A stretch of DNA of 64,000 nt from an uncultured Alphaproteobacteria bacterium (GCA_944392205.1 CALXVV010000012.1:403-64402), one strand, 5' to 3'; positions 2,568-53,984 are shown, numbered from the stretch's first letter. The notes: generated from the sequence alone by a model not told the origin. Numbers and translations are program-made.

Positions 2568-3113
2568 TTATTCCAAAACTGCCTTGCCTGATAAGACTTG
2601 CTCTATTTGGTATAGATTAGCACGGACCAAGGCCAACTCTTCAGGATTGTAGCTCAGCGACTTAAACTGCTTTTCTTGTGAAGCGATTATGTTTTTGAGA
2701 TTGTCTGCTCCCGCTCCGGACATTGTCTTTAACAATCCGCGATTATCTTCCAGATTGTTTTGCAAAGTCGCTATTGTCGCCAGCTCTTTTAGGCGTTGCT
2801 CCATAGAGAAAAATCTTTCGGCGTTCCAGCCGTTGGCCTCCAGCCAGCGGCGAACTTGCGCAGGAATCTCGCTGTCTTGCCGCAGAGAAACTTGTGCCAT
2901 TGATTTACTCAAATCCTTTTGCATAAAATCTGACCACACGCTCAGAAAAGCATTTATTTCCTTAACACTTAAAACATCTTCCGGTGACGGCGGTGTATCA
3001 TAATTTGCACCAAAACGGGCAATATTGCTCAACGGCGTGGTCAATATAACGCCTAAAAAAACTAATGCAGCACATAAAATCAAAATCTTTTTACGCGTCA
3101 TCTGGCCTACCAT
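2568..3113 (-). CDS. Hypothetical membrane-anchored or secreted protein
   Basis: 181-aa ORF with an N-terminal hydrophobic segment (KKILILCAALVFLGVILTT). It overlaps the upstream HAD gene by 7 nt, suggesting operon coupling. Confidence 0.6.
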   Translation of the reverse strand: MVGQMTRKKILILCAALVFLGVILTTPLSNIARFGANYDTPPSPEDVLSVKEINAFLSVWSDFMQKDLSKSMAQVSLRQDSEIPAQVRRWLEANGWNAERFFSMEQRLKELATIATLQNNLEDNRGLLKTMSGAGADNLKNIIASQEKQFKSLSYNPEELALVRANLYQIEQVLSGKAVLE

Positions 3114-3967
3114 CTCAAGTTGGAAATAACATAATCCGGAGAAGCATCATAACTGTTGGACAGCTCTCTGGTTTTAGCAACATCGGGAATATAACCCTCA
3201 CCTAAGAAATTTACATGCACACCCTTAGAAATAAGAGCAGAATCCCATCCCAACATGACTGCGCCTTTGATGTCGGTGGCAATATTGTCGCCAATCACCA
3301 AGATGTTTCCGGGGTCGGCAATTCCATCCAGGCAATATTTGAAAATATTAATATCCGGCTTGCCTAGTGTGACAATTCTGCCGCCAATAACCGCATATTG
3401 CTCAGCTAAAGCTCCGGGGGCCAAACAAATTTTGCCATCCTTAAAACAAGAGGTGTCGTTGCCGGCACAGACAAACGGCAATCCCAATGCTGCGGCCTGT
3501 TCTAAAATGGGACGATAAGTATCTGTGGTATCATTTACATCTGCCACCGTATCCATATATAGGAAATGAGCGGTAGAGATATTGGCTACCGGCACAAAAT
3601 CAAGCCCGGCAAAAACGCCCTTGTCCGCCGAAGACCCCAAATGATAATAATTGGTCCCCAAGGCTCCGTAATTGCCGCTGCCGTGTTTTAGTTTATAGTG
3701 TAAAATTTCACCCGCACTCATGATGCAGCTGAAAATTTGCGGATTAATACCATTTTGCTGCAGCCACTCGGCTATGGTTGCCACGCGCCAGGCCATGTTG
3801 GTTAAGAGCACAATTTTTTTGCCTCTGGCCGCAAGGTTGCGCAGAGCATCTGCCGCAGCGGGCAAAATGCTGCCGCCTTCATATAAAACACCGTTAAAAC
3901 CTAGGACAAATGTGTCGTAGTTGTCTGCGGTTTTAGACAGATTAACTATGGGCTTTATCATCTTCAT
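3107..3967 (-). CDS. HAD-superfamily subfamily IIA hydrolase
   Basis: 286 aa. It shows HAD-IIA hallmarks: the first nucleophile motif appears degenerate (FVLGFNGVLY), plus LLTN and the C-terminal IGDNIATDIKGA. Confidence 0.75.
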   Translation of the reverse strand: MKMIKPIVNLSKTADNYDTFVLGFNGVLYEGGSILPAAADALRNLAARGKKIVLLTNMAWRVATIAEWLQQNGINPQIFSCIMSAGEILHYKLKHGSGNYGALGTNYYHLGSSADKGVFAGLDFVPVANISTAHFLYMDTVADVNDTTDTYRPILEQAAALGLPFVCAGNDTSCFKDGKICLAPGALAEQYAVIGGRIVTLGKPDINIFKYCLDGIADPGNILVIGDNIATDIKGAVMLGWDSALISKGVHVNFLGEGYIPDVAKTRELSNSYDASPDYVISNLRW

Positions 3968-5542: not shown

Positions 5543-6637
5543 ATGAGTATTTTGACAAGACCAATTTTGGAAATTGACTTAAACAACTTATTGGCAAACT
5601 ACCAATTGTTAGAAAAAATTGCTCCGCACGCCACTCCGGCAGCAGTCGTCAAAGATGATGCCTATGGCTTGGGAGCCGCTGTCGTTGCGCCTTTGCTCTA
5701 TGAAAAAGCACAATGCCGTAACTTTTTTGTGGCTCATGCCATTGAGGGGCAAAGAATCGCCGACAAACTGCCGCAGGCAAAAATTTATGTCTTGCAGGGA
5801 ATCGGCGAGGATTGTTTGGATATTTTTCAACAAGTGCCGCAGCTGATCCCTGTCATCAGCAGTCCCGAGATGTTTGAATTTTGGAAAAACAACCGCTTGC
5901 CAAACAGAAAACCGGTTATTCATATTGAGACCGGACTAAATCGCCTGGGCTTTAGGGAGCATGACCTCAAAGCCTTGAGCGATGCCGACCTGTCTGAGTT
6001 TTCAATGGTGATGTCTCACCTGGCTTGCGGTGATGAAAAGGACCATTTTATGAATGCTCATCAGTTGGAGACTTTTGAGCAGCTCAAAAACATCTATTTT
6101 CCTGACCTGCCGGCTTCTCTTTCGGCCTCTGACGGTGTCTTTTTGGGCGAGAAATTTCATTGGAACATGGTGCGTTTGGGCGCTGCCATGTATGGTATCA
6201 ACACCGCACCTTACCGCCTCAACCAGATGCAGAACGTGGTGCGCATCAAAGCGCCGGTCTTGCAAATCGAACCCTTACCCAAGGGCGAATTTGTCGGCTA
6301 TTCTGCTACTTATCGAGCCAGCTCGGACCGCAAAATTGCCATTGCCTCCATCGGGTATGGCGACGGATTACCCCGTTCTCTTTCCAATGTGGGCAAAGTT
6401 TATTTCAAAGTCCGTGGCAAGCTCCACGAATGCCGGGTTATCGGCCGGATGTCCATGGACAACCTTATTTGTGATGTAACCGAGGCAGAAGGCTTGGAAG
6501 TCGGCGATTTTGCTTATATTGCTGATGATTTCTACACGCTTGATGATATGGCAAGAGATGCCGGCACTATTTCTTATGAAATTATGTCACGCGTGGGCAA
6601 GAACACTCGTTATATTCGAAAATATATCGGACAATAA
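5543..6637 (+). CDS. alr: Alanine racemase
   Basis: The PLP-lysine region is AVVKDDAYGLG. Also present: HIETGLNRLG, RLGAAMYG, and the C-terminal IGYGDG...GRMSMD...ISYEIM. Confidence 0.9.
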   Translation: MSILTRPILEIDLNNLLANYQLLEKIAPHATPAAVVKDDAYGLGAAVVAPLLYEKAQCRNFFVAHAIEGQRIADKLPQAKIYVLQGIGEDCLDIFQQVPQLIPVISSPEMFEFWKNNRLPNRKPVIHIETGLNRLGFREHDLKALSDADLSEFSMVMSHLACGDEKDHFMNAHQLETFEQLKNIYFPDLPASLSASDGVFLGEKFHWNMVRLGAAMYGINTAPYRLNQMQNVVRIKAPVLQIEPLPKGEFVGYSATYRASSDRKIAIASIGYGDGLPRSLSNVGKVYFKVRGKLHECRVIGRMSMDNLICDVTEAEGLEVGDFAYIADDFYTLDDMARDAGTISYEIMSRVGKNTRYIRKYIGQ

Positions 6638-6670: not shown

Positions 6671-9600
6671 CTATTTACTGAAGCCTCCTCTGCCCACTCT
6701 TGTTTGGAGAATTTTGGCTGCGACTTCATTTTTGGCCGGAATACTTGTGTATTCGTGATTTCTCAGCATAGCATCCGCCTCTTTAAACCTGCCCTCAACA
6801 ATCTTGGTCGGAACAGAGGTTGCCTCACTGCCATCCATATTGGTCATGGTGAAGTGCGGCACATTGTCTTTGCCAACCCGGATGTTAACCACTCCGTCTT
6901 CGGTAAACATCTTAAATTGAGATGTTCCGTTAAAAATAGAAGTTTTGGTCAGCTCTCCAGGCTTGCACCCGGCCAATGCCGCGGCCTCGTTGACAGTTTG
7001 GTCTGAAAGCGGCGTATAAGGAACAGAAACCATAACCGGCTCTTCATAGGTTTCGGTTACATTCTCGGTTATCTTGCGAAGAGCACTCTTATCATAAAAT
7101 TCGGGAGCTCTTCCATCCGAGTATTGGATCATCATCTCACCGGTTTCTTTATTAATCGTAACCGTTGCATCCTCAGGAATCTGATGTTGGCCGTGAGGAC
7201 CGGAAATCGCCCATTTAACTTCTCCCGGAACTGTCCGCTCAAAGGTGCCGACACCTTCCGTCATCTTTTGCTGATATTCTGGAATATCATATTGGCTCTC
7301 TCCATAGCTCATATCTATGTCAAGTCCCGGTCTAACCGGAGGCAAATCCGTCTTTTTGATATCATTATCAAAATCTACATCTCTGCCCACACTTCCAAAA
7401 TCTTTTCTTGCGACACTTGTCTCAGTCTTGGCCTGGTGCAAGTCGCCTTTACCAGAGCAATCATCGTCAATATGATAGTGAGCCTCATTGCCGGTCCAAC
7501 GGTTGTCTTCCGGTCTGACGTGGCCGGCACCGACATAATAACCACTCCTGCCATAGACCTCACCCGAGGTATCAATAGTTGCTAAGCCCCGATGAATAAT
7601 TTCTTGTTGGACCACATTGACCTCTCCACAATTGATGTCTCGATCAATTAATGTACGAGCCAAATGCGGGCCCAAGTGAGTTTGGAACAGTTTATCTGCT
7701 TCGGCTTTGCTGATGTTGCCTTCCAAGAAACGCTCCCAATCTCCTTCCTTAAAGCCAAGAGAAAGTAACTCTTTATTGAGCTGTATGCGTTGCTGTGCCA
7801 AATTTCCTGAAAAACCGACCTGTTCTCTCAACATATTATAACGATATACGTATTCTGATACGCTCATTCCTTCCGGCTTTCCTTCCAAGAGGCCTTGGCT
7901 GTCAACATCTTTAGCATAATCCAAAAACTCTTGAGCTGATAACTTCATGTTTCCACCATCTGCAGCATCTCGAATTATGATATTATCAAATTTGGCAAGA
8001 CTGCTTCTTGAATCAAACCATGAATCCGAGTGAGCTCCAAATTTCATTTCAATATTGACGGCTCTTTGGAATTTTCCGCCCAGCTCTATTGCGGCGTCTG
8101 CACCGGCTGTATGAGCTTCGGTTCCAGTAACGGTAGCTGCCGTACCACCACTAGTGCTTGTACCGTCGGTTATTGTATTTGTGTCAACCCCATCGGCAAC
8201 AGCATTATTGTCACCAGCACTCGGAACTTCCGGCATTTTGCCCCAGCCTTCGCGCAACGGTGTGGATGGTTGTGCTGAATCCTGCCAATTTTCAGCCCCT
8301 ACCCCGGCAACTCCGGTGTGTGAACGTCCTGCTCCGGTGATTGTGTCTATATGTTCAGCCACATTTGAGTTCAGACGTCTCAGACTCAACCATGATCCAA
8401 CTGCTGAGATTCCTAAGCCAATGTAAAACGAAGTTTTGGCTGCTTTCCATTTACTTCTGTTTTCTTCAGTCGGGCTCTTTTTATATTCCTTTCTGGCAAC
8501 AATCATGGCCGTGGTTTGGGCTGAAATAGAAGATGCCGTGCGTGCTAAACCGGACAATACTCGAGACGAAACCTTATCTAGTCCCATTGTTGTTCCGCCG
8601 GCTCCCAATAAACCTCCGGCAACAGCACCAACCATGCCAAACCAGCTTTGGCGCTTGTAGTCCTTGTCTGTTTTTTTGGTTTGCCATGCAGTCTTCATTG
8701 AATCCCAAAAGCCAATCTTCTCACCTTTTGCTTTGGCTGCCGCACGCTGTTTTTGTGCCTCGGCTACAACCGGCCAAAACCATGCTCCGGCTGCTGAATA
8801 TGCTGCATATGCACCAATGGCTATGGCCCCATATCCTGTTGCGGCAACAGCAAGAGTGGCACCACCGTTAACAATATGTTGCCACTTGTGCTCTTTGATG
8901 TTTTTTACAACTGCACGGCCGATTTCATAGCGTTTGCCCCACAGTGCAACAGCTTTGTCCCTGAAAGAATTTAATCTCTTGCCTAATGCCGACTTACCTT
9001 TACCAAGTTTTCCCTCCAAAACATCTTTGAACTTGGTGACCTCTACATCCGTATCGGCACAAGCGGTGATGATATCCTTAACTCTTATTTGAAGCTTTTT
9101 CCCGCCTTCAATCAGGCTCGCTATAAAATCATCTGCCGCCTTAGCCTTTCTTTCCAGGTAAGCTTTGAATTTGTTTTCATCTTTCTGCTCTTCTGCCGTG
9201 GGCAATTCAAAAGTGGAGGCAACACCTGCCATACCCAACTTGGCCACAAATAAATCTTTGACTTTTTCGGTCAACTGTTTGTGTTGCTCGCTCTTGGAAG
9301 CCATTAAATATTTCAGGTTGCCAACATTTTCCTGGTATGCCTCTAATTTGGCTGCCTCAAACATCTGAGAAAGGTTCTTGGCCTTGTTTTCCTCATCCAC
9401 AACGGAGCCGTCATCTTCAACTATATCGACATTGGCCAAAACCTGCTCTAGCTCTTTGAAATCTTCGGAAATCGTGCCGTCCTTGGCATAAAAATTTATA
9501 CGCTCAAGATTTTCATCTAAGCTCTTGTCATTCTTGCGCAAAACCTCTATTTCTTGGTCGAGACCATTCTCTTCCTCATAAGACTTCAATACCTCGTCTA

Positions 9601-10147
9601 ACTTCTTTTGAACCTCGGCTCTCTTTTTTTCATCTGTAATGTGACTTACAAAACTTTTGGCAGATTCAAGCTCATGAATATCTACGGATTCTTTACCTTC
9701 TATCAGTTTATCCATCTTTTCGGCAATGGTGTTATTTAATCTGCTTTGAGCATATTTTATCTCATCGCTTTGCGGAGCGATATTATACAGCGCCTGAAGT
9801 TCCTCAGCCTCCTTAAAGCTCATCTCCCCGAAGTCCAGTATTTTTGCTGTTTCCTCAGCTCTCCACTGAACATCTTTCTCCCATTTTTCTTCTTTGGGCG
9901 TTCCTTCAAAGATGCCTCTTATCTTGTCAAATTGGCGGTAGTCCGCACCCGTACTTTCCAAGCTCATGTCAAAACGCTCATAAAAGCCTTCTACCAAGTC
10001 TTTTTGGGTGGGGTCATTCCTTAAAAGCCGAACAGCTTCCAACAGTTCATCGTAACTGTAGTTTACAAAAGAACTTGCGCCCAAGATCTCTTGTGCTTCT
10101 TGAGTTGTCATCTTTTTAGTCTGTTGTATTTTTTCATTTTCTGCCAT
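6671..10147 (-). CDS. Large (1158 aa) protein of unknown function: coiled-coil N-terminal third, central hydrophobic/Gly-Ala-rich segments, Thr/Gly/Ala-rich linker, unknown C-terminal domains
   Basis: Uninterrupted 3.5-kb ORF bounded by terminators. No signal peptide. Hydrophobic stretches include GGATLAVAATGYGAIAIGAYAAYSAAGAWFWPVV, WFGMVGAVAGGLLGAGG and FYIGLGISAVGSWL. I recognise no family. Confidence 0.8.
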   Translation of the reverse strand: MAENEKIQQTKKMTTQEAQEILGASSFVNYSYDELLEAVRLLRNDPTQKDLVEGFYERFDMSLESTGADYRQFDKIRGIFEGTPKEEKWEKDVQWRAEETAKILDFGEMSFKEAEELQALYNIAPQSDEIKYAQSRLNNTIAEKMDKLIEGKESVDIHELESAKSFVSHITDEKKRAEVQKKLDEVLKSYEEENGLDQEIEVLRKNDKSLDENLERINFYAKDGTISEDFKELEQVLANVDIVEDDGSVVDEENKAKNLSQMFEAAKLEAYQENVGNLKYLMASKSEQHKQLTEKVKDLFVAKLGMAGVASTFELPTAEEQKDENKFKAYLERKAKAADDFIASLIEGGKKLQIRVKDIITACADTDVEVTKFKDVLEGKLGKGKSALGKRLNSFRDKAVALWGKRYEIGRAVVKNIKEHKWQHIVNGGATLAVAATGYGAIAIGAYAAYSAAGAWFWPVVAEAQKQRAAAKAKGEKIGFWDSMKTAWQTKKTDKDYKRQSWFGMVGAVAGGLLGAGGTTMGLDKVSSRVLSGLARTASSISAQTTAMIVARKEYKKSPTEENRSKWKAAKTSFYIGLGISAVGSWLSLRRLNSNVAEHIDTITGAGRSHTGVAGVGAENWQDSAQPSTPLREGWGKMPEVPSAGDNNAVADGVDTNTITDGTSTSGGTAATVTGTEAHTAGADAAIELGGKFQRAVNIEMKFGAHSDSWFDSRSSLAKFDNIIIRDAADGGNMKLSAQEFLDYAKDVDSQGLLEGKPEGMSVSEYVYRYNMLREQVGFSGNLAQQRIQLNKELLSLGFKEGDWERFLEGNISKAEADKLFQTHLGPHLARTLIDRDINCGEVNVVQQEIIHRGLATIDTSGEVYGRSGYYVGAGHVRPEDNRWTGNEAHYHIDDDCSGKGDLHQAKTETSVARKDFGSVGRDVDFDNDIKKTDLPPVRPGLDIDMSYGESQYDIPEYQQKMTEGVGTFERTVPGEVKWAISGPHGQHQIPEDATVTINKETGEMMIQYSDGRAPEFYDKSALRKITENVTETYEEPVMVSVPYTPLSDQTVNEAAALAGCKPGELTKTSIFNGTSQFKMFTEDGVVNIRVGKDNVPHFTMTNMDGSEATSVPTKIVEGRFKEADAMLRNHEYTSIPAKNEVAAKILQTRVGRGGFSK

Positions 10148-14733: not shown

Positions 14734-15840
14734 TCATTTACCTGATTGCGGCTCAAAGACCTCGCCGCAGATGCAGGGCTCTCTCACGCCGGTCGTGAAG
14801 GGATAGGTTGCGGGCATAAAATTTTCTCTCCTTACCGCCAAATAGGCAAAAGCCTGCGCCTCTATGGCAGAGGCATCCCAGCCCATATCTGCTGCGGTTT
14901 TAACCTCAATATCCTCAAGTCTTTGGCGCAAAAAACGTACCAAGGTCGGGTTTTTGGCTCCGCCCCCGCAAACAACAACCATCTTTGGACGTTGCGGCAG
15001 ATAAAGCGCCATTGAATAAGCTATGGCCTCAGCCACAAAAGAGGTGGCTGCAGCAGCGCCGTCTTCCAAACTCAAGCCTTCCAAATGCTCCAACTTGTCA
15101 TTAAATGTATTTTTATTAGCCGCTTTAGGTGGAAATTTGGCCAAATACTTATGCCGCATGAGCTGGTTGACTATCGGCATATGGACAGTGCCGGTGGCTG
15201 CCAGCTTGCCGTTGTAATCCATGTGTTGGCCGCTGTGCTTGAAAACCCAATCATTTATTGCATTATTTCCGGGACCGACATCAAAAGCCAACATCTCGCC
15301 ATTTTCACCAATCCAAGTGAGGCTCGAGATACCGCCGATATCTACAACCGCCAAAGGCTTTGGCAGGTTGTGGCTTATTGCCTGATGGTATAGGGCCGAA
15401 AGCGGTGCACCTTGGCCGCCTGAGAGTATGTCTGCCTGGCGGAAGCGGCTGATGGTCTTAATCCCGCACAAATTGGCTAACAGCTGCCCATCTCCTAATT
15501 GCAAGATAAACTGCTCAGCCGGATTGTGGGCAATAATATGGCCGGCAAAACCAATAATATCTATTTTCTCATCGTAGTCATTGATGATGTCTTTGACAAT
15601 TGCGGCGTGAAACTCCGTAAACTCTTTTTCAAGTTGCTCTTTTTCTTCTGCCTCTGCATCCTTATAGTGGCGGTGAAACCAGCGCAGTTTTTCCCTTAAC
15701 TCATCTTCAAACGGAACATCTAAAATCGGGCCAAAATCAAAAACATCTACCCCATCGGTTGAAATCACCGCGGCATTGACCCCATCAAGCGATGATCCGC
15801 TCATTAATCCAAGCGCTCTCTTTGCACGCAACAAATCCAT
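14734..15840 (-). CDS. anmK: Anhydro-N-acetylmuramic acid kinase
   Basis: Contains GLMSGSSLDGVNAAV near the N-terminus, then DIGGISS, FDVGPGN and VCGGGAKN. This is the typical AnmK motif series. Confidence 0.9.
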   Translation of the reverse strand: MDLLRAKRALGLMSGSSLDGVNAAVISTDGVDVFDFGPILDVPFEDELREKLRWFHRHYKDAEAEEKEQLEKEFTEFHAAIVKDIINDYDEKIDIIGFAGHIIAHNPAEQFILQLGDGQLLANLCGIKTISRFRQADILSGGQGAPLSALYHQAISHNLPKPLAVVDIGGISSLTWIGENGEMLAFDVGPGNNAINDWVFKHSGQHMDYNGKLAATGTVHMPIVNQLMRHKYLAKFPPKAANKNTFNDKLEHLEGLSLEDGAAAATSFVAEAIAYSMALYLPQRPKMVVVCGGGAKNPTLVRFLRQRLEDIEVKTAADMGWDASAIEAQAFAYLAVRRENFMPATYPFTTGVREPCICGEVFEPQSGK

Positions 15841-22881: not shown

Positions 22882-24375
22882 ATGGAGATTTCAGAACTGC
22901 ATTTGCAAAAAATGCGTTATCCGAATAATGATTTTGACAGCTATTTTATCACGGCACAAGAAGTGGCTGAGGTTTTGGCTGTGGGGAAAATTCCGCATAT
23001 TACTTTGCCGCAAAGCTCAAACGGCCCAACCGTTGCGGTTTTGATGGCGGTTGAAAAACACCCGGACCGCGAAGAGCCTGACTACTATGTGCCTGAATTT
23101 TATGTAGAGGCTATCACGCAAAATGGCGGAAACCCCGTTTTTATCGGTTTTGATAAAACAGCAGAACAACTGCAACAAACCATGCCGCAGGCCATATTAT
23201 TGGTGGGTGGGGATTTTGCCTTTCCGCCCGCTTGGTTGGAAGAAGGCATCCAAGCCCATGGCGGAAATCTGCGCCGAGAAAAAGCCTATGAGACCATGAT
23301 AACTTATGCCAAAGAGCACAAACTGCCGCTTTTGGGTATTTGCGCCGGAGAGCAGGTTTTGGCCGGAACTTTGGGGGCAAAACTTTGCATGGTCAAAGGG
23401 CACCGTGCCTCCTTGGATGATGATGCCCACCTGATTAACATTGTTCCCCACACTCTGCTCGCCAAATTGTGCGGGCTAAAAATGGCTAAAGTCAACTCTA
23501 ACCACCACATGGCTGTATCTGCTAAAACAAGCGGAGATTTTGTTGTCTCGGCCACGGCAGAAGACGGCACCATTGAGGCTATTGAGCCTAAAGACCCGTG
23601 GCATTATTTTGTTTTGGGCGTGCAATGGCACCCCGAGCGCATGGTAAAAAAAGAAGATTTTCTCACGGATAGAATCTTCAATGGTTTCATGAAAGCGGCT
23701 CGCGGCGGCTTTGTGCATAATCATGAGGCCATCCCCTTTTCTCAGGCGCCGATGGTTGAGATTGACGACCCGCATTTTATTGTTGATATGATGTATGCCA
23801 AACCCCAAAACCTCTCCGGACAGCCGGTTTATGAGCTTTGCGGAATCGGCAACCATGCCTATGTGCGGATTGAATTGTGGGAGGCCCTAAAAAAGCTTAT
23901 TCCCTGGCTTGAGGAACATCAGCTCAAGCTCAAAATATGCGATGCCTTCCGCCCGATGAGTGCGCATATGGCGCTCAAAGAGGCAATCCACGAGAAAGGG
24001 CCCGGAATTTTTGCCAGCCTTGCGCAAACATCTAAACACTGCCACGGAACCGCAGTTGATGTCTTGCTCACCGATATGAACGGCAACGAGCTTGCCTACC
24101 CCACAAAAGTTGACTGCTACCGTCCTGATTTGGCAGCCAAAATCCAAAAAGGCGACACAAAAGATTTTTATGAATACACCAAATGCGGCCGGCATGACTA
24201 TTTTGCTCCCAACCTGGAAAAAGAAATTGCCAACCGCGAACAGCTTAAAAATCTTATGGAAAGTGTCGGCCTCATCTCTTGGGTGGGCGAATGGTGGCAC
24301 TATGAACTGCCCGACGAGTTTAACCTTGTTTACCCACCGGTCGAGCGCCGGCCAGGCAAGCGCCTGGAGGCATAA
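22882..24375 (+). CDS. Two-domain enzyme: N-terminal class-I glutamine amidotransferase-like peptidase C26 (gamma-glutamyl hydrolase type) fused to a C-terminal D-alanyl-D-alanine dipeptidase (VanX/DdpX, peptidase M15D)
   Basis: N-terminal domain: LPLLGICAGEQV (nucleophile Cys elbow) and VLGVQWHPE (His/Glu). C-terminal domain: ICDAFRP, SKHCHGTAVD (SxHxxGxAxD zinc motif) and EWWHYE. The last ~13 codons and the stop codon lie inside a repeat element. Confidence 0.85.
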   Translation: MEISELHLQKMRYPNNDFDSYFITAQEVAEVLAVGKIPHITLPQSSNGPTVAVLMAVEKHPDREEPDYYVPEFYVEAITQNGGNPVFIGFDKTAEQLQQTMPQAILLVGGDFAFPPAWLEEGIQAHGGNLRREKAYETMITYAKEHKLPLLGICAGEQVLAGTLGAKLCMVKGHRASLDDDAHLINIVPHTLLAKLCGLKMAKVNSNHHMAVSAKTSGDFVVSATAEDGTIEAIEPKDPWHYFVLGVQWHPERMVKKEDFLTDRIFNGFMKAARGGFVHNHEAIPFSQAPMVEIDDPHFIVDMMYAKPQNLSGQPVYELCGIGNHAYVRIELWEALKKLIPWLEEHQLKLKICDAFRPMSAHMALKEAIHEKGPGIFASLAQTSKHCHGTAVDVLLTDMNGNELAYPTKVDCYRPDLAAKIQKGDTKDFYEYTKCGRHDYFAPNLEKEIANREQLKNLMESVGLISWVGEWWHYELPDEFNLVYPPVERRPGKRLEA

Positions 24376-25773: not shown

Positions 25774-26451
25774 ATGATGACACATTTGGATATTTTGGTT
25801 TTGTTGGTTGTTGTGGTGTTGATTTTCCAACGCTTGCGCAGTGTGCTCGGAACTCGCCCCAATAATATAGAGGAAAAGAAAATCCGCCTCTCTAAGGAAA
25901 ATGCCGAGAAATTATACAATATCTTAAAAGACGAGGCCGACAAAATGCAAGCCGCCGAGGAAAAAAGTAAAGACTCCGCCGCCGAGCTGGTGCCTGAGGG
26001 TGAGCCTTTGAGCGAGCTTGACAAGACCTTGATGGAAATTCCAAACTTTAATAAAGCAAAATTCTTAAAAAGTGCCGAAAACGCCTTCCAAATCATTACC
26101 GAAGCCTTTAACAAAGGTGATGCGGAAACCTTGGAAATGCTCGTTAACAAAAAACTCTTTAAGAAATTTCAAGAAGTTATTGAAGATCGCAAGCAAAATA
26201 ATCTCTCTGCCGAAACTGATTTTATCGGCTTTGATAAGGTGGAAATCACCAAGGCCAAAATCTCTGCCGATAAGGTGGCCGAAATTACGGTCGAATTTGT
26301 CAGCGAGCAGGTTAACATTCTGCGTGATGCACAGGGCACCGTGATTGAGGGTGATGAAAACTATATCCAAAATATCACCGATGTCTGGACTTTTGAAAGA
26401 GCTATATCTTCAACCTCGCCTAACTGGCTTTTGATTTCTACTAAAAAATAA
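25774..26451 (+). CDS. Tim44-like domain protein
   Basis: N-terminal transmembrane helix and a C-terminal Tim44-like fold (FLKSAENAFQIITEAFNKGD...VWTFER...NWLL). The location next to secB is the conserved alphaproteobacterial arrangement. Confidence 0.8.
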   Translation: MMTHLDILVLLVVVVLIFQRLRSVLGTRPNNIEEKKIRLSKENAEKLYNILKDEADKMQAAEEKSKDSAAELVPEGEPLSELDKTLMEIPNFNKAKFLKSAENAFQIITEAFNKGDAETLEMLVNKKLFKKFQEVIEDRKQNNLSAETDFIGFDKVEITKAKISADKVAEITVEFVSEQVNILRDAQGTVIEGDENYIQNITDVWTFERAISSTSPNWLLISTKK

Positions 26452-27620
26452 TGAAGCAGCGCTATTTTAACATTTTTCTTGCCCTAATGCTCCTTGCCTC
26501 TTGCGGAAAGGAAGAAACGCCCCCCGCGCAAACGGAGCCTGAAGAAAAGCCCAAACTCCAACTGGTGGAAAAAACTTTTGACCAACTACCGGGATGGCAA
26601 GAAGATGATGTCTCTTTGGCCAGAGATGCCTTTTTGCAAAGCTGCCAGGCTCTTGCCAAGACAAAATCCCCCTTTATCGGCAAGGGTGAAATTAAAATTT
26701 CTGCCAACACCTACAAGCAGATTTGCAATGAGGCCAAACTCACCCCACAGCAACATTTTCGCCAATTTATCCTTGAGCATTTTACCCCATATCTGGTAAC
26801 TTATGAGGGCTCCGATGAGGGAAAATTCACCGCCTACTATGAGCCGCTTATTCATGTTTCGCACAATAAAGATGATAAATACAAATATCCTATCCACGCC
26901 AGGCCTCTTGACCTGATTGAATTTAACCCCCATGACTTTGACCCGCAAATGCCCTCAAAACGCCTGGTGGGCAGAGTAGACGGCCAAAAGCTGGTACCAT
27001 ATTATTCCAGAGAAGAAATTTTGCAAGGCAAAGGCAATGCGCCTGTTTTGCTCTGGTCTGACAGCTTTGTTGATGTCTTTATTATGCACATTCAGGGGCC
27101 AGCTGTGGCAGAACTCCCGGACAAAAGCAGAATCAGAATATCTTATGCCGACACAAACGGGCTGAAATTTCAGGGAATCGGTTCAATTTTGCTCAAGCAC
27201 GGAGAGCTCAAAAGCGGCGGCGCCTCTACGGACAAGGTCAAAAAATGGCTCATTGATAATCCCGACAAAGCCCGTGCTTATATGAATGAGAATCCGCGCT
27301 ATGTTTTCCACCGTTTGATTGGCGCCTCCGGTCCGGTCGGAGCGCTTGGCGTGCCGATTGCAGCCGGAAGATCTTTGGCGGTTGACCCGCAATTTATTCC
27401 GTTGGGGGCCTTGATGTGGCTTGATACTGTTGCCCCAAACGGAGAAAAAATCCAAAAGCTGGTTAATGCCCAAGATGTCGGCCGGGCTATCAAAGGAGCT
27501 ATTCGCGGAGATTATTATTGGGGCAGCGGCGGTGATGATATCTTGGCTCTGGCCGGCAAAATGAATGCCAAAGGGAGTTACTATATTTTGCTGCCTAAAG
27601 AAGAGAGGAATAATCCATGA
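26451..27620 (+). CDS. mltA: Murein transglycosylase A (lytic transglycosylase, lipoprotein)
   Basis: Lipobox LLASCG. Also present: TAYYEP, the RIS.AD.NG. region (RISYADTNGLKFQGIG), RSLAVDPQFIPLGA and AQDVGRAIKGAIRGDYYWG. Confidence 0.9.
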   Translation: MKQRYFNIFLALMLLASCGKEETPPAQTEPEEKPKLQLVEKTFDQLPGWQEDDVSLARDAFLQSCQALAKTKSPFIGKGEIKISANTYKQICNEAKLTPQQHFRQFILEHFTPYLVTYEGSDEGKFTAYYEPLIHVSHNKDDKYKYPIHARPLDLIEFNPHDFDPQMPSKRLVGRVDGQKLVPYYSREEILQGKGNAPVLLWSDSFVDVFIMHIQGPAVAELPDKSRIRISYADTNGLKFQGIGSILLKHGELKSGGASTDKVKKWLIDNPDKARAYMNENPRYVFHRLIGASGPVGALGVPIAAGRSLAVDPQFIPLGALMWLDTVAPNGEKIQKLVNAQDVGRAIKGAIRGDYYWGSGGDDILALAGKMNAKGSYYILLPKEERNNP

Positions 27621-48296: not shown

Positions 48297-48449
48297 AATT
48301 TTTTCCTTTCTTGTTTGCCAAACGTCTCAATGTAGCAAAAAAACTCTAAAATTTGGTAAAAACGTAAATTTAGCTTCAAAAGAGGTCTTGACTTTAAATA
48401 CAATATTCGTATATATTTGGATATGTTTAACGTACATTTGGAGGAATTT

Positions 48450-49448
48450 ATGGATAAAGATTTGAGCTTTGCAGAAGATTTGGAACTGAAATTAGACGGC
48501 AAACGCCCGATTAGGCGTGAAAACCCTAAAAAAGGACAAAGTCGGTGGTATTATGTTGACCCTCGTGAAAGAGATGAGGATTTTACACTCTTATCGCAGA
48601 TGAAAACCATAGATGTACCAAGCCCCAACACGCCTAATCCGGCTCTGCAACAGGTGATGTTTGAAGATGCTGAAAACAATCCTGATAAATATTATATTTG
48701 GCGCACCGTTGGCGATGACAAAGTCAGAGATTCTCATGCCGAGCGTGAAGGCTGTATTTTTAGTTGGGATGATGCTCCGGAAGGCGGGCATCCGGGAGAA
48801 GACTACAACTGCCGCTGTATTGCCGAACCCTACGTTCCCAGAAAAGACTCTTCTGAATCCGATGAACAATGGCGGCAACGCTTGCTTACAACGATGAAAG
48901 AATACTTACTTGAAGAAGAAGACTTGAAAAATCATATTTATTTAGACACCAAGGGATTTAAGACTGTTGGAGCCGGAAAAAATATTGATAAATGGGGAGA
49001 TTTTAAGAAAATTAATTGGGAGGTTGACGGCAGACCGGCAACAGAAGAAGAAAAATTGGCAGGATTTGAGCGTTATGAGGAATTAAAACAACAAAAATTC
49101 TTCGGACCAAATGTTACCTCTGATTTTTTTGAAGACAAAAGCAATCTCCGTATCAGCGAAAAAGAGGCAGAGCACCTTTTGGAGCAACATATTAAAAATG
49201 ATTTGAATAAATTGGAAACATATGTTTCCGGATTTAGAGACTTTCCGTTTGGGCTACAACAAGTTTTGCTTGATATTCGCTACAATACAGGGAATGCCGA
49301 CAGAAGAAATTGGCCAAATTTATATGAGGCTATTGATAAACGAGATATCCGCGGTATGGCCAACAATGTTAATCGAAAAGATGTTGGAGAGAGCAGAAAT
49401 CAATGGGCAAAAGAGACTATTCTTTCAATTAGAAATTGGGGATATTAA
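48450..49448 (+). CDS. Fusion protein: phage Mu-F/SPP1-gp7-like core motif plus a T4-type (GH24-like) lysozyme domain
   Basis: A strong GGAGG RBS lies before the ATG at 48450. The MuF core is WRTVGDDKVRDSHAEREGCIF...DYNCRCI. The lysozyme N-lobe EEEDLKNHIYLDTKGFKTVGAG has Glu, Asp and Thr spaced exactly as E11/D20/T26 of T4 lysozyme ([20 protein letters not shown]). The later LLDIRYNTG and NQWAKE resemble the T4L C-lobe. Confidence 0.8.
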   Translation: MDKDLSFAEDLELKLDGKRPIRRENPKKGQSRWYYVDPRERDEDFTLLSQMKTIDVPSPNTPNPALQQVMFEDAENNPDKYYIWRTVGDDKVRDSHAEREGCIFSWDDAPEGGHPGEDYNCRCIAEPYVPRKDSSESDEQWRQRLLTTMKEYLLEEEDLKNHIYLDTKGFKTVGAGKNIDKWGDFKKINWEVDGRPATEEEKLAGFERYEELKQQKFFGPNVTSDFFEDKSNLRISEKEAEHLLEQHIKNDLNKLETYVSGFRDFPFGLQQVLLDIRYNTGNADRRNWPNLYEAIDKRDIRGMANNVNRKDVGESRNQWAKETILSIRNWGY

Positions 49449-49840
49449 TCCTTTGGGATGAAAAACCAGGAAATTCCGTTAATTTGCCCGTTGGTGTTGG
49501 CAGTATATTCTTTAACCCTCCATTTTGCATAGCTGCAGCGGTCTTTGCAGGGAAATATTTGATAGGTATAAATATACGTTACGTCTCTGTTGCTCAGTGG
49601 ATTGAAAAACGTGCACTTGAGCGAGACTTTTTCCAAGGCGTTTTCTAACAGCTCACATTCCTCTATTTGCTCATATCCATCATTGGAAATACGGACCCGG
49701 GTCGGAGAAAGTTGAGTTGTCCATGCCATTCGTGAAATTGGTTTCAACGTCTCGTTAAATAACGGATTTACAAATTCTTCCGATGAAAATATCCGGCAAG
49801 ATGATACAAACACTACTAAAAACAACAATAACTTTCTCAT
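49445..49840 (-). CDS. Small exported (lipobox-like) protein, paralog 1 of 3
   Basis: MRKLLLFLVVFVSSC signal/lipobox, AAGGAGG RBS, 131 aa. Near-identical to 49909..50304. Confidence 0.75.
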   Translation of the reverse strand: MRKLLLFLVVFVSSCRIFSSEEFVNPLFNETLKPISRMAWTTQLSPTRVRISNDGYEQIEECELLENALEKVSLKCTFFNPLSNRDVTYIYTYQIFPCKDRCSYAKWRVKEYTANTNGQINGISWFFIPKD

Positions 49841-49861
49841 GTGAAACAGACCTCCTTATTA

Positions 49862-49884
49862 GATAGACATCAGGATTTTTTCAT
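49862..49884 (-). pseudogene. 23-nt remnant of the 5' end of a second copy of the 157-aa gene (duplication/deletion scar)
   Basis: 49862-49908 (GATAGACATCAGGATTTTTTCATTATGACATTATCCTTTCTGACAAACTAATC) matches 50816-50863. The latter is the start of gene 50366..50839 plus the spacer to paralog 3. Confidence 0.7.
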
Positions 49885-49908
49885 TATGACATTATCCTTT
49901 CTGACAAA

Positions 49909-50304
49909 CTAATCCTTTGGGATGAAGAACCATGCAATTCCGTTAATTTGCCCGTTGGTGTTGGCAGTATATTCTTTAACTGTCCATTTTGCATAGCTGC
50001 AGCGGTCTTTGCAAGGGAATATTTGATAGGTATAAATATACGTTACGTCTCTGTTACTCAGCGGATTGAAAAATGTGCACTTGAGGGAGACTTTTTCCCA
50101 GGCGTTTTCTAACAGCTCACACTTTTTTATTACCTCATATCCGGCGTTGGAAATACGAACCCGGGTCGGAGAAAGTTGGGTTGTCCATGCCATTCGTGAA
50201 ATTGGTTTCAACGTCTCGTTAAATAACGGATTTACAAATTCTTCCGATGAAAATATCCGGCAAGATGATACAAACACTACTAAAAACAACAATAACCTTC
50301 TCAT
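49909..50304 (-). CDS. Small exported (lipobox-like) protein, paralog 2 of 3
   Basis: 131 aa, with 8 amino-acid differences from paralog 1 and the same RBS and leader. Confidence 0.75.
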   Translation of the reverse strand: MRRLLLFLVVFVSSCRIFSSEEFVNPLFNETLKPISRMAWTTQLSPTRVRISNAGYEVIKKCELLENAWEKVSLKCTFFNPLSNRDVTYIYTYQIFPCKDRCSYAKWTVKEYTANTNGQINGIAWFFIPKD

Positions 50305-50365
50305 GTGAAACAGACCTCCTTATTAGATAGTTTGATTTTAATAATAGGCTTTAAAATTTGGCCGT

Positions 50366-50839
50366 TTAATTTGCAGTTAGTATCTTTTTCGTATAAATTA
50401 ACATTCTCAAAACAGCGTCTCGTACAAGGTTTTCGACTTCTGTCGAACTCAGTCTATCCGCAACTGAACCACAGAATAAATGCTCATTCTCACTATAACA
50501 AGCATTGCTATAATTGTACATTGAGGCATTCCATTCATAAGCCGCAGAAATAAACTTCGAAAAAGCTTTTTTCATTTCTGTTTCTTTTTCCGCATAAAAT
50601 AACTCAAATGTTTCGTTGGCAACTTTTTGATAGCATTTGACTAATTCATTATTAAGCTTTTGTATTTTTCTGTTGTCTTCTTTTTGCTCTGCCACAGCCA
50701 AATTCTGCTTTTGTGCCAGCAAACAGTTATCAACCGCCTTGCCCAACCTCTCAATATCTGAAAGTGATTTATTGGTATCAGCAAGAGAGGCTGACGTTGC
50801 AAAAAGTAAAAATAAGATAGACATCAGGATTTTTTTCAT
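50366..50839 (-). CDS. Secreted helical four-Cys protein (157 aa), unknown function
   Basis: Signal peptide MKKILMSILFLLFATSASLA. It is embedded in the paralog array. There is only a very weak pattern resemblance to DUF1311/LprI-type proteins. Confidence 0.7.
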   Translation of the reverse strand: MKKILMSILFLLFATSASLADTNKSLSDIERLGKAVDNCLLAQKQNLAVAEQKEDNRKIQKLNNELVKCYQKVANETFELFYAEKETEMKKAFSKFISAAYEWNASMYNYSNACYSENEHLFCGSVADRLSSTEVENLVRDAVLRMLIYTKKILTAN

Positions 50840-50863
50840 TATGACATTATCCTTTCTGACAAA

Positions 50864-51265
50864 CTAATCTTCTGAAATAGAGAACCAAGTAATTCCGTTA
50901 ACTTGCCCATCGGTGTTTGCCATATATTCTTTGACTTTCCATTGCGCATAGTTGCAGAAATAACCTTTGCAAGGGAATATTTGATAGGTATAAATATACG
51001 TTACGTCTCTGTTGCTCAGCGGATTGAAAAATGTGCACTTTAGAGAGACTTTTTCCCAGGCGTTTTCTAACAGCTCACACTTTTTTATTACCTCATATCC
51101 GGCGTTGGAAATACGAACCCGGGTCGGAGAAAGTTGGGTCGTCCAGCCAGTTCGTGAAGTTGGTTTCAACGTCTCGTTAAATAACGGATTTACAAATTCT
51201 TCCGATGAAAATATCCGGCAAGATGATACAAACACTACTACTAAAAACATCAATAACCTTCTCAT
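50864..51265 (-). CDS. Small exported (lipobox-like) protein, paralog 3 of 3 (more divergent C-terminus)
   Basis: 133 aa. The N-terminal two thirds are almost identical to paralog 2, and the C-terminal third diverges (CKGYFCNYAQWKVKEYMANTDGQVNGITWFSISED). Confidence 0.75.
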   Translation of the reverse strand: MRRLLMFLVVVFVSSCRIFSSEEFVNPLFNETLKPTSRTGWTTQLSPTRVRISNAGYEVIKKCELLENAWEKVSLKCTFFNPLSNRDVTYIYTYQIFPCKGYFCNYAQWKVKEYMANTDGQVNGITWFSISED

Positions 51266-53327: not shown

Positions 53328-53984
53328 TTAACGGCGAACCGAGCAACTTCCGCACCCGGATGTCTTGGGTGCCAAGGTTGGCGCCTGAACTTGCGTTGTC
53401 GGGCCTTCTGAAAAATCGGCTTCTTCAACTTCTACGAAACCGCAAGGTGTTTCAACCATTCCGTCTTTTCTACGGCCTCTTTCTCGAGAGCGGGTGTCAA
53501 ATGTGCGCTGGTTATAATTTGCCTCTTCTGCTGAGACATTTAGCCCCAGCAAAATCTCTATATCATCCTGATCTACCGGAATCTTTACCTTTACCGGGCG
53601 ACCACTAAACGTTGTTTCCCTATCATCAACATCTATTTTGCCGCTGGCAAAATAGCTCCTCTTGCCAACAAACTCCGGCGGTCCTTGCTCAATATTGGTA
53701 TAAAAACTGAAATCCACCGCAGTATCTGCACTATCCTGCAATCTGGTCAGCCTAAACTGCGGAGTGATAACCGCATAGCGGCGAGAAGTACCATCTACCA
53801 CATAGCAATAGCCCTCGTAGCCTGTCAGCTCCACCCGGAAATTATCTCTGTAATTGACTATTTGCGTGAGGTAGGCCTCGCCCCCCGGAATTTTAACATT
53901 GGGGCAACGAAAATCTTCTGCTTGGTAACTTGCCGTGCAGGAAGCAATCATCAATAATGCTGTCAGCCATACGTATCTTTTCAT
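53328..53984 (-). CDS. Lipoprotein, unknown function
   Basis: MKRYVWLTALLMIASCTAS (lipobox ASC). 218 aa. Confidence 0.65.
   Translation of the reverse strand: MKRYVWLTALLMIASCTASYQAEDFRCPNVKIPGGEAYLTQIVNYRDNFRVELTGYEGYCYVVDGTSRRYAVITPQFRLTRLQDSADTAVDFSFYTNIEQGPPEFVGKRSYFASGKIDVDDRETTFSGRPVKVKIPVDQDDIEILLGLNVSAEEANYNQRTFDTRSRERGRRKDGMVETPCGFVEVEEADFSEGPTTQVQAPTLAPKTSGCGSCSVRR

Follow-up and report, generated by a model that had tools for sequence, protein, structure and literature searches.

A stretch of 64,000 nucleotides (nt) from an uncultured Alphaproteobacteria bacterium (GCA_944392205.1 CALXVV010000012.1:403-64402; the whole stretch is called the window here) carries a plus-strand gene that combines a short MuF-type N-terminus with a muramidase-like C-terminal domain (CT). 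It meets, tail to tail, a minus-strand array encoding three paralogous putative lipoproteins (p1, p2 and p3) and a secreted protein of 157 amino acids (aa), h157. We consider it probable that this locus is a MuF-type toxin-immunity module in which p1-p3 are the periplasmic antidotes of the adjacent muramidase CT. That the paralogs are periplasmic immunity proteins had been proposed in an earlier, sequence-only reading of the same DNA; the proposal now gains CT-specific linkage, co-divergence with the CT and recurrence of the pair at unrelated chromosomal sites and in phage, a basis that is genomic throughout. The features of the locus are the following:

48388-48417, plus strand: promoter-like site TTGACT-18-TATATT upstream of the toxin gene (consensus scan, 10/12 matches)
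48450-48851, plus strand: N-terminal part of the toxin, short MuF/SPP1-gp7-like domain (PF04233, TIGR01641), ending ...HPGEDYNCRCIAEPYVPRKDS
48852-49448, plus strand: toxin CT, predicted T4-lysozyme/pesticin-like muramidase domain (PF00959, PF16754, motif, BLASTP)
49445-49840, minus strand: p1, predicted 131-aa lipoprotein of the FVNP(L/I)F family, its stop overlapping the toxin stop
p1 residues D54, Q58, E60, E61 and L69: acidic hairpin patch (p1/p2 sequence comparison)
49851-49908, minus strand: p2-p1 spacer, made of the p1 leader, an h157 fossil and a spacer like the one after p3
49851-49857, minus strand: p1 leader AAGGAGG (flank comparison)
49861-49884, minus strand: fossil of the first eight h157 codons (direct repeat 49858-49881 versus 50812-50835, 96 %)
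49909-50304, minus strand: p2, predicted 131-aa lipoprotein paralog (ORF call, paralog comparison, AlphaFold2 model)
p2 residues A54, V58, K60, K61 and W69: basic hairpin patch (p1/p2 sequence comparison)
50366-50839, minus strand: h157, secreted four-Cys protein of 157 aa, probably helical
50864-51265, minus strand: p3, predicted 133-aa lipoprotein paralog, p2-like over its first 99 residues and divergent at the C-terminus

The linkage of p genes to this type of CT is strict. Open reading frames (ORFs) were called in all fetched loci, MuF genes were identified by phmmer and p genes by a hidden Markov model (HMM); toxin CTs were classed against the window CT, with those more than 90 % identical collapsed and an E-value of 1e-22 or better taken as a strong match. 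A convergent p gene, offset from the stop of the toxin gene by -14 to +107 nt, lies beside all 15 non-redundant toxins with a strong lysozyme-type CT, against 1 of 57 toxins with other CTs (Fisher p = 1.1e-14), and even this lone case (L004) is a decayed toxin of the window type. Such pairs are spread over different places in the chromosome (that of L005, for instance, adjoins hslUV), and additional ones are found in metagenome contigs. The partners also diverge together: over 13 pairs, CT identity and p identity are correlated with r = 0.85 (Mantel p = 2e-4), whereas the N-terminal domain gives r = 0.30 with p, and the partial correlation of CT and p given the N-terminal domain is still 0.83. 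Five look-ups that started from the p side returned two lysozyme-CT genes whose MuF motif is damaged or gone (in L251 and L252), one 104-aa C-terminal remnant of such a CT (in L255) and two orphans. Orphan p genes are also present 0.5-1.9 kb past toxins with other CTs, which is the pattern expected of immunity genes.

The toxin gene begins at ATG 48450, behind a GGAGG at 48440-48444, and encodes 332 aa; the mechanical start at TTG 48417 was discarded because homolog lengths and the Shine-Dalgarno sequence support the ATG. Evidence for the upstream promoter is weak, the region having fewer promoter and terminator sites than shuffled sequence. The MuF part is short (about 135 aa) and matches PF04233 (E = 7e-14, 53 bits for a cut-off of 29.6) and the SPP1-gp7 family TIGR01641 (E = 8.6e-13, 48.6 bits for a cut-off of 39.65), in both cases over the C-terminal half of the profile, at toxin residues ~80-138. 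The last 200 residues point to a muramidase of the T4-lysozyme/pesticin type, with matches to PF00959 (E = 1e-3, 19.7 bits, below the cut-off of 22.3) and to Pesticin PF16754 (E = 0.016, 15.6 bits, below the cut-off of 25.8); BLASTP aligns the CT with pesticin itself at E = 2e-4, and the homologs P0012, P0019 and P0041 carry precomputed PF16754 or PF00959 matches. By motif alignment, the equivalents of E11, D20 and T26 in T4 lysozyme would be E168, D177 and T183 (counted from the TTG at 48417), in the motif EE-E168-D-LKNHIYL-D177-TKGFK-T183-VGAG, which fits E-x8-D-x5-T; the core Y-x-D-T-x-G is present in the relatives whose sequences were inspected. No signal peptide precedes the MuF part. What had been read as a lysozyme-like protein thus does end in a predicted lysozyme-type CT, but it is also a MuF-domain polymorphic toxin whose CT has been swapped between strains.

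The swap is best seen in a sister-strain contig (L001) that is syntenic with the window, with transketolase on one side of the locus and SemiSWEET and aldolase on the other. The toxin encoded there equals that of the window through codon 145 except for E128D; homology then ends at window nt 48852, and a GH108 CT follows instead, a strain-level exchange at codon 146 that is a hallmark of polymorphic toxins. More broadly, the N-terminal domain is common to 80 homologs, in which it ends ...HPGEDYNCRCxAEPY and leads into mutually unrelated CTs: nucleases of the colicin E3 type (PF09000), colicin D, colicin E5 and bacterial RNase A-like types, as well as GH108, VgrG3-like muramidase, Tlde1 and lysozyme-like domains (the families on this one N-terminal domain being PF09000, PF11429, PF12106, PF18431, PF05838, PF21277, PF10908 and PF00959). 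A scan of species-representative genomes returned 326 relatives, mainly in gut/rumen alphaproteobacterial metagenome-assembled genomes (MAGs) and in Rhodobacterales, with 2-3 such loci in several MAGs; the window toxin itself is 99 % identical to a protein of the MAG 'uncultured Alphaproteobacteria bacterium E40__bin9'. In Rhodobacterales, the short-MuF proteins of loci L053-L088 form a large class whose common CT (~203 aa) bears the motif WSSRDFVNHYYRGNGRGVTV and matches no Pfam family, and each is followed by an overlapping co-directional gene for a membrane protein of 164-169 aa (for example 2899-3759 and 3752-4246 in L053), likely an uncharacterised toxin/immunity pair.

Convergent orientation of the toxin and the array had been viewed as a caveat to the immunity proposal; it proves instead to be a conserved arrangement for lysozyme-type CTs, which recurs with GH108 and VgrG3-like CTs and is that of pesticin and its immunity gene. 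Partners of GH108, VgrG3-like and distant lysozyme CTs are convergent too, mostly with evident signal peptides: the GH108 CT of L001 faces h157, and the VgrG3-like CT of L025 faces a secreted protein of 157 aa. The largest class of non-lysozyme CTs, that of the Rhodobacterales, is paired with a co-directional membrane protein gene overlapping the toxin stop. Distant lysozyme-like CTs in L029, L032, L035, L036 and L078 have convergent secreted partners of another family (272-295 aa), located ~+3 to +8 nt past the toxin stop on the opposite strand; a Pfam scan of one representative gave no match, and these proteins seem to form a second family of candidate immunity proteins in an identical architecture. 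Among colicins, the immunity genes of pore formers reportedly lie on the opposite strand and are constitutive, and those of nucleases are reportedly co-transcribed with the toxin. Since the window toxin has no signal peptide, it would be harmless to the producer's wall from inside and immunity would be needed against incoming toxin only, which fits independent transcription of the p genes.

The sequence-only reading had described the array largely correctly. All four ORFs are present at the coordinates and lengths it gave, on the minus strand, and each of the three paralogs has the FVSSC lipobox-like start and four further Cys (C62, C76, C98 and C102). The common N-terminus is MR(K/R)LL...FVSSC, a signal peptide with the lipobox V-S-S-C; all three conform to the pattern [LVI][ASTVI][GAS]C with MRKLLLFLVVFVSS-C, from which lipidation is predicted. 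The AAGGAGG leaders said to be identical are so for p1 and p2, while p3 has GAAAAGG, a weaker Shine-Dalgarno sequence. Identity of p1 and p2 is slightly lower than the ~95 % estimated (25 of 396 nt differ, hence 93.7 %), but the change counts hold, with 11 codons purely synonymous (stop codon included) and 8 amino-acid-changing. So does their clustering: four of the eight replacements fall within residues 54-61 (D/Q/E/E versus A/V/K/K), a fifth is at residue 69, and the probability of such clustering by chance is p ~0.01-0.05. The paralog p3 is indeed close to p2 before diverging sharply, with 13 nt differences over codons 1-98 and 27 over the last 35 codons, although the near-identical stretch amounts to the first three quarters or so rather than two thirds. 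Likewise, the overlap of the p1 stop codon with that of the plus-strand gene is confirmed; it lies in TTAA at 49445-49448.

The proteins p1-p3 are members of a family that is real and exported but carries no annotation. Run against 1.84 billion representatives, a profile search yielded 137 matches, counted as clusters at 50 % identity, ~95 of which are small exported proteins (<=200 aa). In the latter, residues F23, N25, P26, F28, C62 and C76 are invariant; the signal peptide is followed by the motif (E/Q)(E/K)(K/R)-F-V-N-P-(L/I)-F-(Y/N)..L.P.S...W.T.LTPT, and a later motif, C-x-(L/M)-L-E-N......L-K-C, holds both invariant Cys. Judged by a loose pattern, about two thirds of the family have something like a lipobox, and many others seem to have a type-I signal. 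The paralogs match no Pfam family at E up to 1 and no NCBIfam entry, a PHROGs search with p1 was empty, and searches of Protein Data Bank (PDB) sequences returned no relatives of the p proteins or of h157. The lysozyme-inhibitor families, which had seemed worth comparing, also gave no HMM match to p1-p3 at E up to 1. A word-index homolog search under-samples the family, with 4 clusters each for p and h157 versus 137 by HMMER profile, and its long multi-stretch matches (such as P0158 and P0206) were rejected as spurious, being due to a surface-protein repeat of the 'LYAKWTINEYTI' type. An AlphaFold2 model of p2 built from 68 sequences (pLDDT 89.8, pTM 0.79), which supersedes an earlier run on 6 close sequences (pLDDT 60), is a confident all-β meander of eight strands, in which C62 and C76, seven residues either side of a hairpin turn, likely form a cross-strand disulfide. 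Foldseek comparison of the model with PDB and BFVD gave nothing significant; the best PDB matches are lipocalin-like (E = 0.024, TM ~0.4).

The genes of the array are real, since dN/dS (the ratio of nonsynonymous to synonymous rates) between p paralogs and orthologs is 0.09-0.28 and homologs occur in many genomes. In the MAG L010, the same p1-p2-h157-p3 order is kept, with ~1-2.5 % divergence in the immediate flanks and up to ~5 % in the wider ones; dS of p1 versus p2 (0.21) exceeds that of window/L010 orthologs (0.04-0.10), hence the duplication predates the split from L010 and both copies have been maintained, each with its acidic (p1) or basic (p2) patch. As to how they arose, 49858-49908 matches 50812-50863: between p2 and p1 stands a further copy of the first 24 nt of h157 and of the spacer upstream of it. 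What follows p2 is the same spacer as after p3, together with the h157 start, and a CTATCT microhomology marks the switch from there to the p leader. We conclude that duplication of a [p-h157] unit was followed by deletion of the second h157 copy. Mosaic strain variants (P0001, P0003 and the L001 gene, the last with a p3-like N-terminus and a p2-like C-terminus) imply recombination among the copies. In the toxin, 11 of the 12 residue differences from L010 are in the CT, among them D236R as well as E166K and D169N on either side of the catalytic Glu, and dN/dS is 0.36 for the CT and 0.06 for the N-terminal domain. We hypothesize that immunity is allele-specific by charge complementarity. Patchy diversification of the paralogs, as first read, is real but modest (gene-wide p1/p2 dN/dS 0.14). 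Apart from one 3-nt (one-codon) indel, p3 is nucleotide-identical to its L010 ortholog; over 400 nt (50801-51200, p3 and the end of h157) no other difference is seen, the toxin CT differing by ~5 %, which suggests recent recombination or a sweep in this segment.

For h157, a faint resemblance to DUF1311/LprI had been suggested, but no such match appears even at E up to 1; its Pfam matches are to unrelated families with E of 0.03 or worse, and it has no NCBIfam match. This protein with a signal peptide and four Cys probably does not belong to the set directed at the window's lysozyme domain, as had been supposed: it is absent from other lysozyme-CT loci except the near-identical MAG L010, and among all loci it is found solely in close relatives of the window. 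In L001 and L012 it adjoins the GH108 CT at +25 nt, and the partner of a second GH108 toxin (L042), a secreted helical protein of 152 aa that contains Cys, is weakly similar to h157 (BLASTP E = 2e-6 for an alignment of 111 residues, signal peptide included; 5.7e-4 by jackhmmer). The partners in L025 and L051 are similar to it in style, with no detectable similarity in sequence, and a metagenome contig with a GH108 CT (L090) ends 156 nt past the toxin, too short to be used. On balance, our preferred reading, held at about even odds, is that h157 is the immunity protein of a GH108 allele, retained here as an orphan.

The pair also occurs in phage. In the IMG/VR contig L170, a portal gene lies upstream of TerL, which is followed by a 343-aa MuF-lysozyme, a convergent p gene (14-nt overlap) and later the major capsid protein; an amidase and a separate endolysin are also present, and L015, L016 and L024 are related phage contexts. 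Most other matches in viral contigs are ordinary MuF proteins. In L170 (UViG_3300028797_006165; 5942-6193, -, and 8985-9461, -), the MuF-lysozyme/p pair is accompanied by a second, truncated p-family ORF (83 aa, E = 2e-11) upstream of the terminase gene, so that immunity-gene fragments accumulate in phage genomes too. Head-morphogenesis modules of prophages are thus a setting of L170, L015, L016 and L024 and not of the window locus. The window's own content is housekeeping: ABC transporters, tRNA synthetases, BatA-D, MltA, AnmK, Tgt, aldolase and transketolase.

Together, these data are consistent with the following mechanism. The gene at 48450-49448 would yield a cytoplasmic two-domain protein, in which the short MuF/SPP1-gp7 domain may serve as a capsid-targeting module (in phages it places a protein inside the capsid, at the portal) and the muramidase CT would cut peptidoglycan once it reached the periplasm of another cell. 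The proteins p1-p3, presumably exported by the lipoprotein pathway and anchored to the membrane in the periplasm, would bind and block this CT. Because their genes are on the opposite strand, with transcription that would not depend on the toxin gene, protection could be in place whenever toxin arrives from outside; pesticin/Pim and the immunity genes of envelope-acting colicins follow the same logic. According to sequence and model, p1 and p2 differ in a charge-reversed β-hairpin patch beside the predicted invariant disulfide and p3 in its C-terminal strands; probably, the three cover different toxin alleles in the population. Delivery is the more speculative part: stand-alone chromosomal short-MuF toxins, several to a genome and each having its own CT and a convergent immunity gene or array, could be a phage-independent arsenal that is loaded in trans, by way of the MuF domain, into capsids of a resident prophage or of particles like gene transfer agents (GTAs), which would inject wall hydrolases into the periplasm of cells nearby, a tentative proposal that we hold to be rather doubtful. 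If true, kin discrimination in uncultured gut Alphaproteobacteria would rest on new arrays of inhibitor lipoproteins, with a specificity set by a charge-variable β-hairpin.

Several observations weigh against the toxin-immunity interpretation or parts of it. The muramidase assignment is a prediction from sub-threshold HMM scores and motif alignment. Neighbouring genes co-diverge partly by linkage alone, although the equally linked N-terminal domain does not follow p in this way. Structurally, no known inhibitor resembles the p model significantly, and none is among the 50 listed Foldseek matches; gene-wide positive selection on p1/p2 was rejected (dN/dS 0.14). In the 64-kb window (20 of the larger ORFs and the immediate neighbours of the locus were scanned), no phage, GTA or secretion-system genes were found, hence no delivery route for the toxin is visible, and the toxin locus could be a silent relic. 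As for h157, its link to GH108 is made of one lineage and one weak similarity, and its one other, more distant homolog (58 % identity; P0224, in L089) stands alone with no toxin nearby.

Could the same genes be explained otherwise? The phage connection invites superinfection exclusion, in which the biochemistry would be unchanged but the MuF-lysozyme would be a capsid-internal ejection protein by which a phage breaches peptidoglycan, the p proteins products of 'moron' genes of lysogens or former lysogens that inhibit the incoming enzyme and thereby keep related phages out, and the window locus a domesticated anti-phage remnant rather than a weapon. MuF/SPP1-gp7-type proteins are indeed packaged and ejected (PMC5576092, PMC3482391), a genuine phage (L170) carries the pair in its head module, with p antisense to late genes, L015, L016 and L024 are phage contexts as well, and toxin-less orphan p genes are common. 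Still, we regard this as unlikely, given that in the window and at most other loci the toxin gene is intact, evolves under purifying selection and has no prophage around it, and that one and the same position in the chromosome has seen its CT exchanged, which a role in exclusion only does not need, and given that sibling proteins bear nuclease CTs typical of interbacterial toxins; L170 moreover has its own endolysin and amidase, though it might still use a separate entry enzyme.

Two further explanations fare worse. The p proteins might be general lysozyme inhibitors that guard against host or foreign enzymes as do MliC, PliC, Ivy and LprI, with the adjacent toxin incidental; exported lipoproteins would suit a gut or rumen organism, and the weak lipocalin-like top matches of the all-β meander recall a fold class that includes MliC/PliC. 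This is nevertheless highly improbable: known inhibitor families have no HMM match to these proteins at E up to 1, MliC, PliC, Ivy and PliG are missing from the 50 listed Foldseek matches, distantly related lysozyme CTs have a different partner family, and neither abutting CT-specific linkage in 15 of 15 cases nor co-divergence with the CT is expected of a host-defence factor. Just as hard to credit is a relic of a lysis cassette, in which the MuF-lysozyme would be a degenerate endolysin and the lipoproteins spanin-like, or unrelated leftovers of a decayed prophage, without function. There are no phage genes around the locus and some relatives are frameshifted or truncated (L004, L011, L014, L047-049 and L252), as a relic would have it, but all genes are under purifying selection, the array is conserved between MAGs whose flanks have diverged by up to ~5 %, the orientation is convergent, there is no holin, the p proteins are unlike spanins (having neither a Pro-rich short mature part nor a C-terminal transmembrane helix), and the phage with the same pair (L170) has a separate endolysin. 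A toxin with its periplasmic antidotes thus stays the preferred interpretation of the locus.

If this interpretation is right, the locus defines a cell-wall-targeting branch of the MuF polymorphic toxins, of which only two have been studied (Apk2 and Bxa), both acting in the cytoplasm. What would be new is (i), an unannotated and predicted periplasmic family of immunity proteins in a conserved tail-to-tail arrangement; and (ii), the occurrence of the pair both in phage head modules and in phage-free chromosomal loci with a toxin domain exchanged between strains. The near-identical p1 and p2, with their charge-reversed patch, are a natural pair for mapping specificity. The system may bear on competition or phage resistance of uncultured gut/rumen Alphaproteobacteria, and annotation pipelines could give a name to a recurrent 'hypothetical lipoprotein'.

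Other observations concern the remainder of the window, where no tRNA genes or Rfam families were found. A 256-aa ORF at 39609-40379 (+) matches serum amyloid A (SAA; PF00277, E = 5.6e-14, 52.8 bits for a cut-off of 30.8), a vertebrate acute-phase protein, and its predicted product would be an unusual bacterial SAA-like protein in a gut alphaproteobacterium. The largest gene of the window, at 6671-10147 (-), encodes 1158 aa, for which Pfam gave nothing with an E-value of 1e-5 or below. A 497-aa protein (22882-24375, +) joins Peptidase_C26/GATase to a C-terminal stretch resembling M15 D-Ala-D-Ala dipeptidases, and it lies near AnmK and MltA; together (with 14734-15840, -, and 26451-27620, +) these may form a peptidoglycan-recycling cluster. 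Two conserved ORFs with no family match, both of which are called as genes in syntenic L001 too, encode a putative lipoprotein of 218 aa (MKRYVWLTALLMIASC...; 53328-53984, -) and a 104-aa protein (44789-45103, -).

Comparison with known systems places the locus among several of them. First come the MuF polymorphic toxins of temperate phages, which are established (PMC3482391, PMC5576092) and have the same N-terminal MuF/SPP1-gp7 domain, variable CT, adjacent CT-specific immunity gene and extra or orphan immunity genes, some relatives here also lying in phage head-morphogenesis modules beside the terminase gene. They differ in that the window MuF part is short, that its CT would attack the cell wall rather than a cytoplasmic target, and that the window and most copies in gut Alphaproteobacteria sit among housekeeping genes with no prophage. 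The toxins characterised so far, Apk2 and Bxa, have a cytoplasmic site of action, and their immunity genes are co-directional (PMC11699363), with cytoplasmic products, whereas the window immunity proteins are convergent and predicted to be exported lipoproteins. Neither MuF survey mentions lysozyme or peptidoglycan CTs (PMC3482391, PMC5576092); our literature search found no combination of MuF with a peptidoglycan hydrolase, and a search for papers linking the MuF domain to GTAs was negative. Lysozyme inhibitors (Ivy, MliC/PliC, PliG, PliI, LprI/DUF1311) are likewise small exported disulfide-containing proteins, and p1-p3 are predicted to block a muramidase as they do, but there is no sequence match to p or h157, and the target of p would be a bacterial or phage toxin domain where theirs is animal lysozyme. 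Immunity proteins of type VI and type IV secretion systems (T6SS/T4SS; Tsi/Tgi, TsiV3, X-Tfi) are exported and often lipoprotein inhibitors, each of one peptidoglycan-hydrolase effector; polyimmunity in these systems involves tandem arrays of paralogs and orphan immunity genes that persist without the toxin, and sibling MuF toxins here carry VgrG3-like and Tlde1-like CTs. The carrier domain, however, is phage-derived here, no T6SS/T4SS genes are in the 64-kb window, the p family matches none of these immunity families by HMM and its model matches no solved structure significantly. Finally, pesticin and its immunity protein Pim, from plasmid pPCP1 of Yersinia pestis, are plasmid-borne with a single immunity gene, and pesticin enters via FyuA/TonB with N-terminal domains of its own, whereas the window locus is a chromosomal array and its toxin begins with MuF; p proteins as homologs of Pim were considered and rejected (hhalign probability 0.2 %). 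In its predicted working the locus resembles pesticin/Pim, as it does periplasmic T6SS immunity: the pesticin toxin domain is a T4-lysozyme-like muramidase, Pim, a small protein (131 aa), reportedly acts in the periplasm, and its gene is convergent with pst on pPCP1, with a 34-nt gap past the toxin stop.

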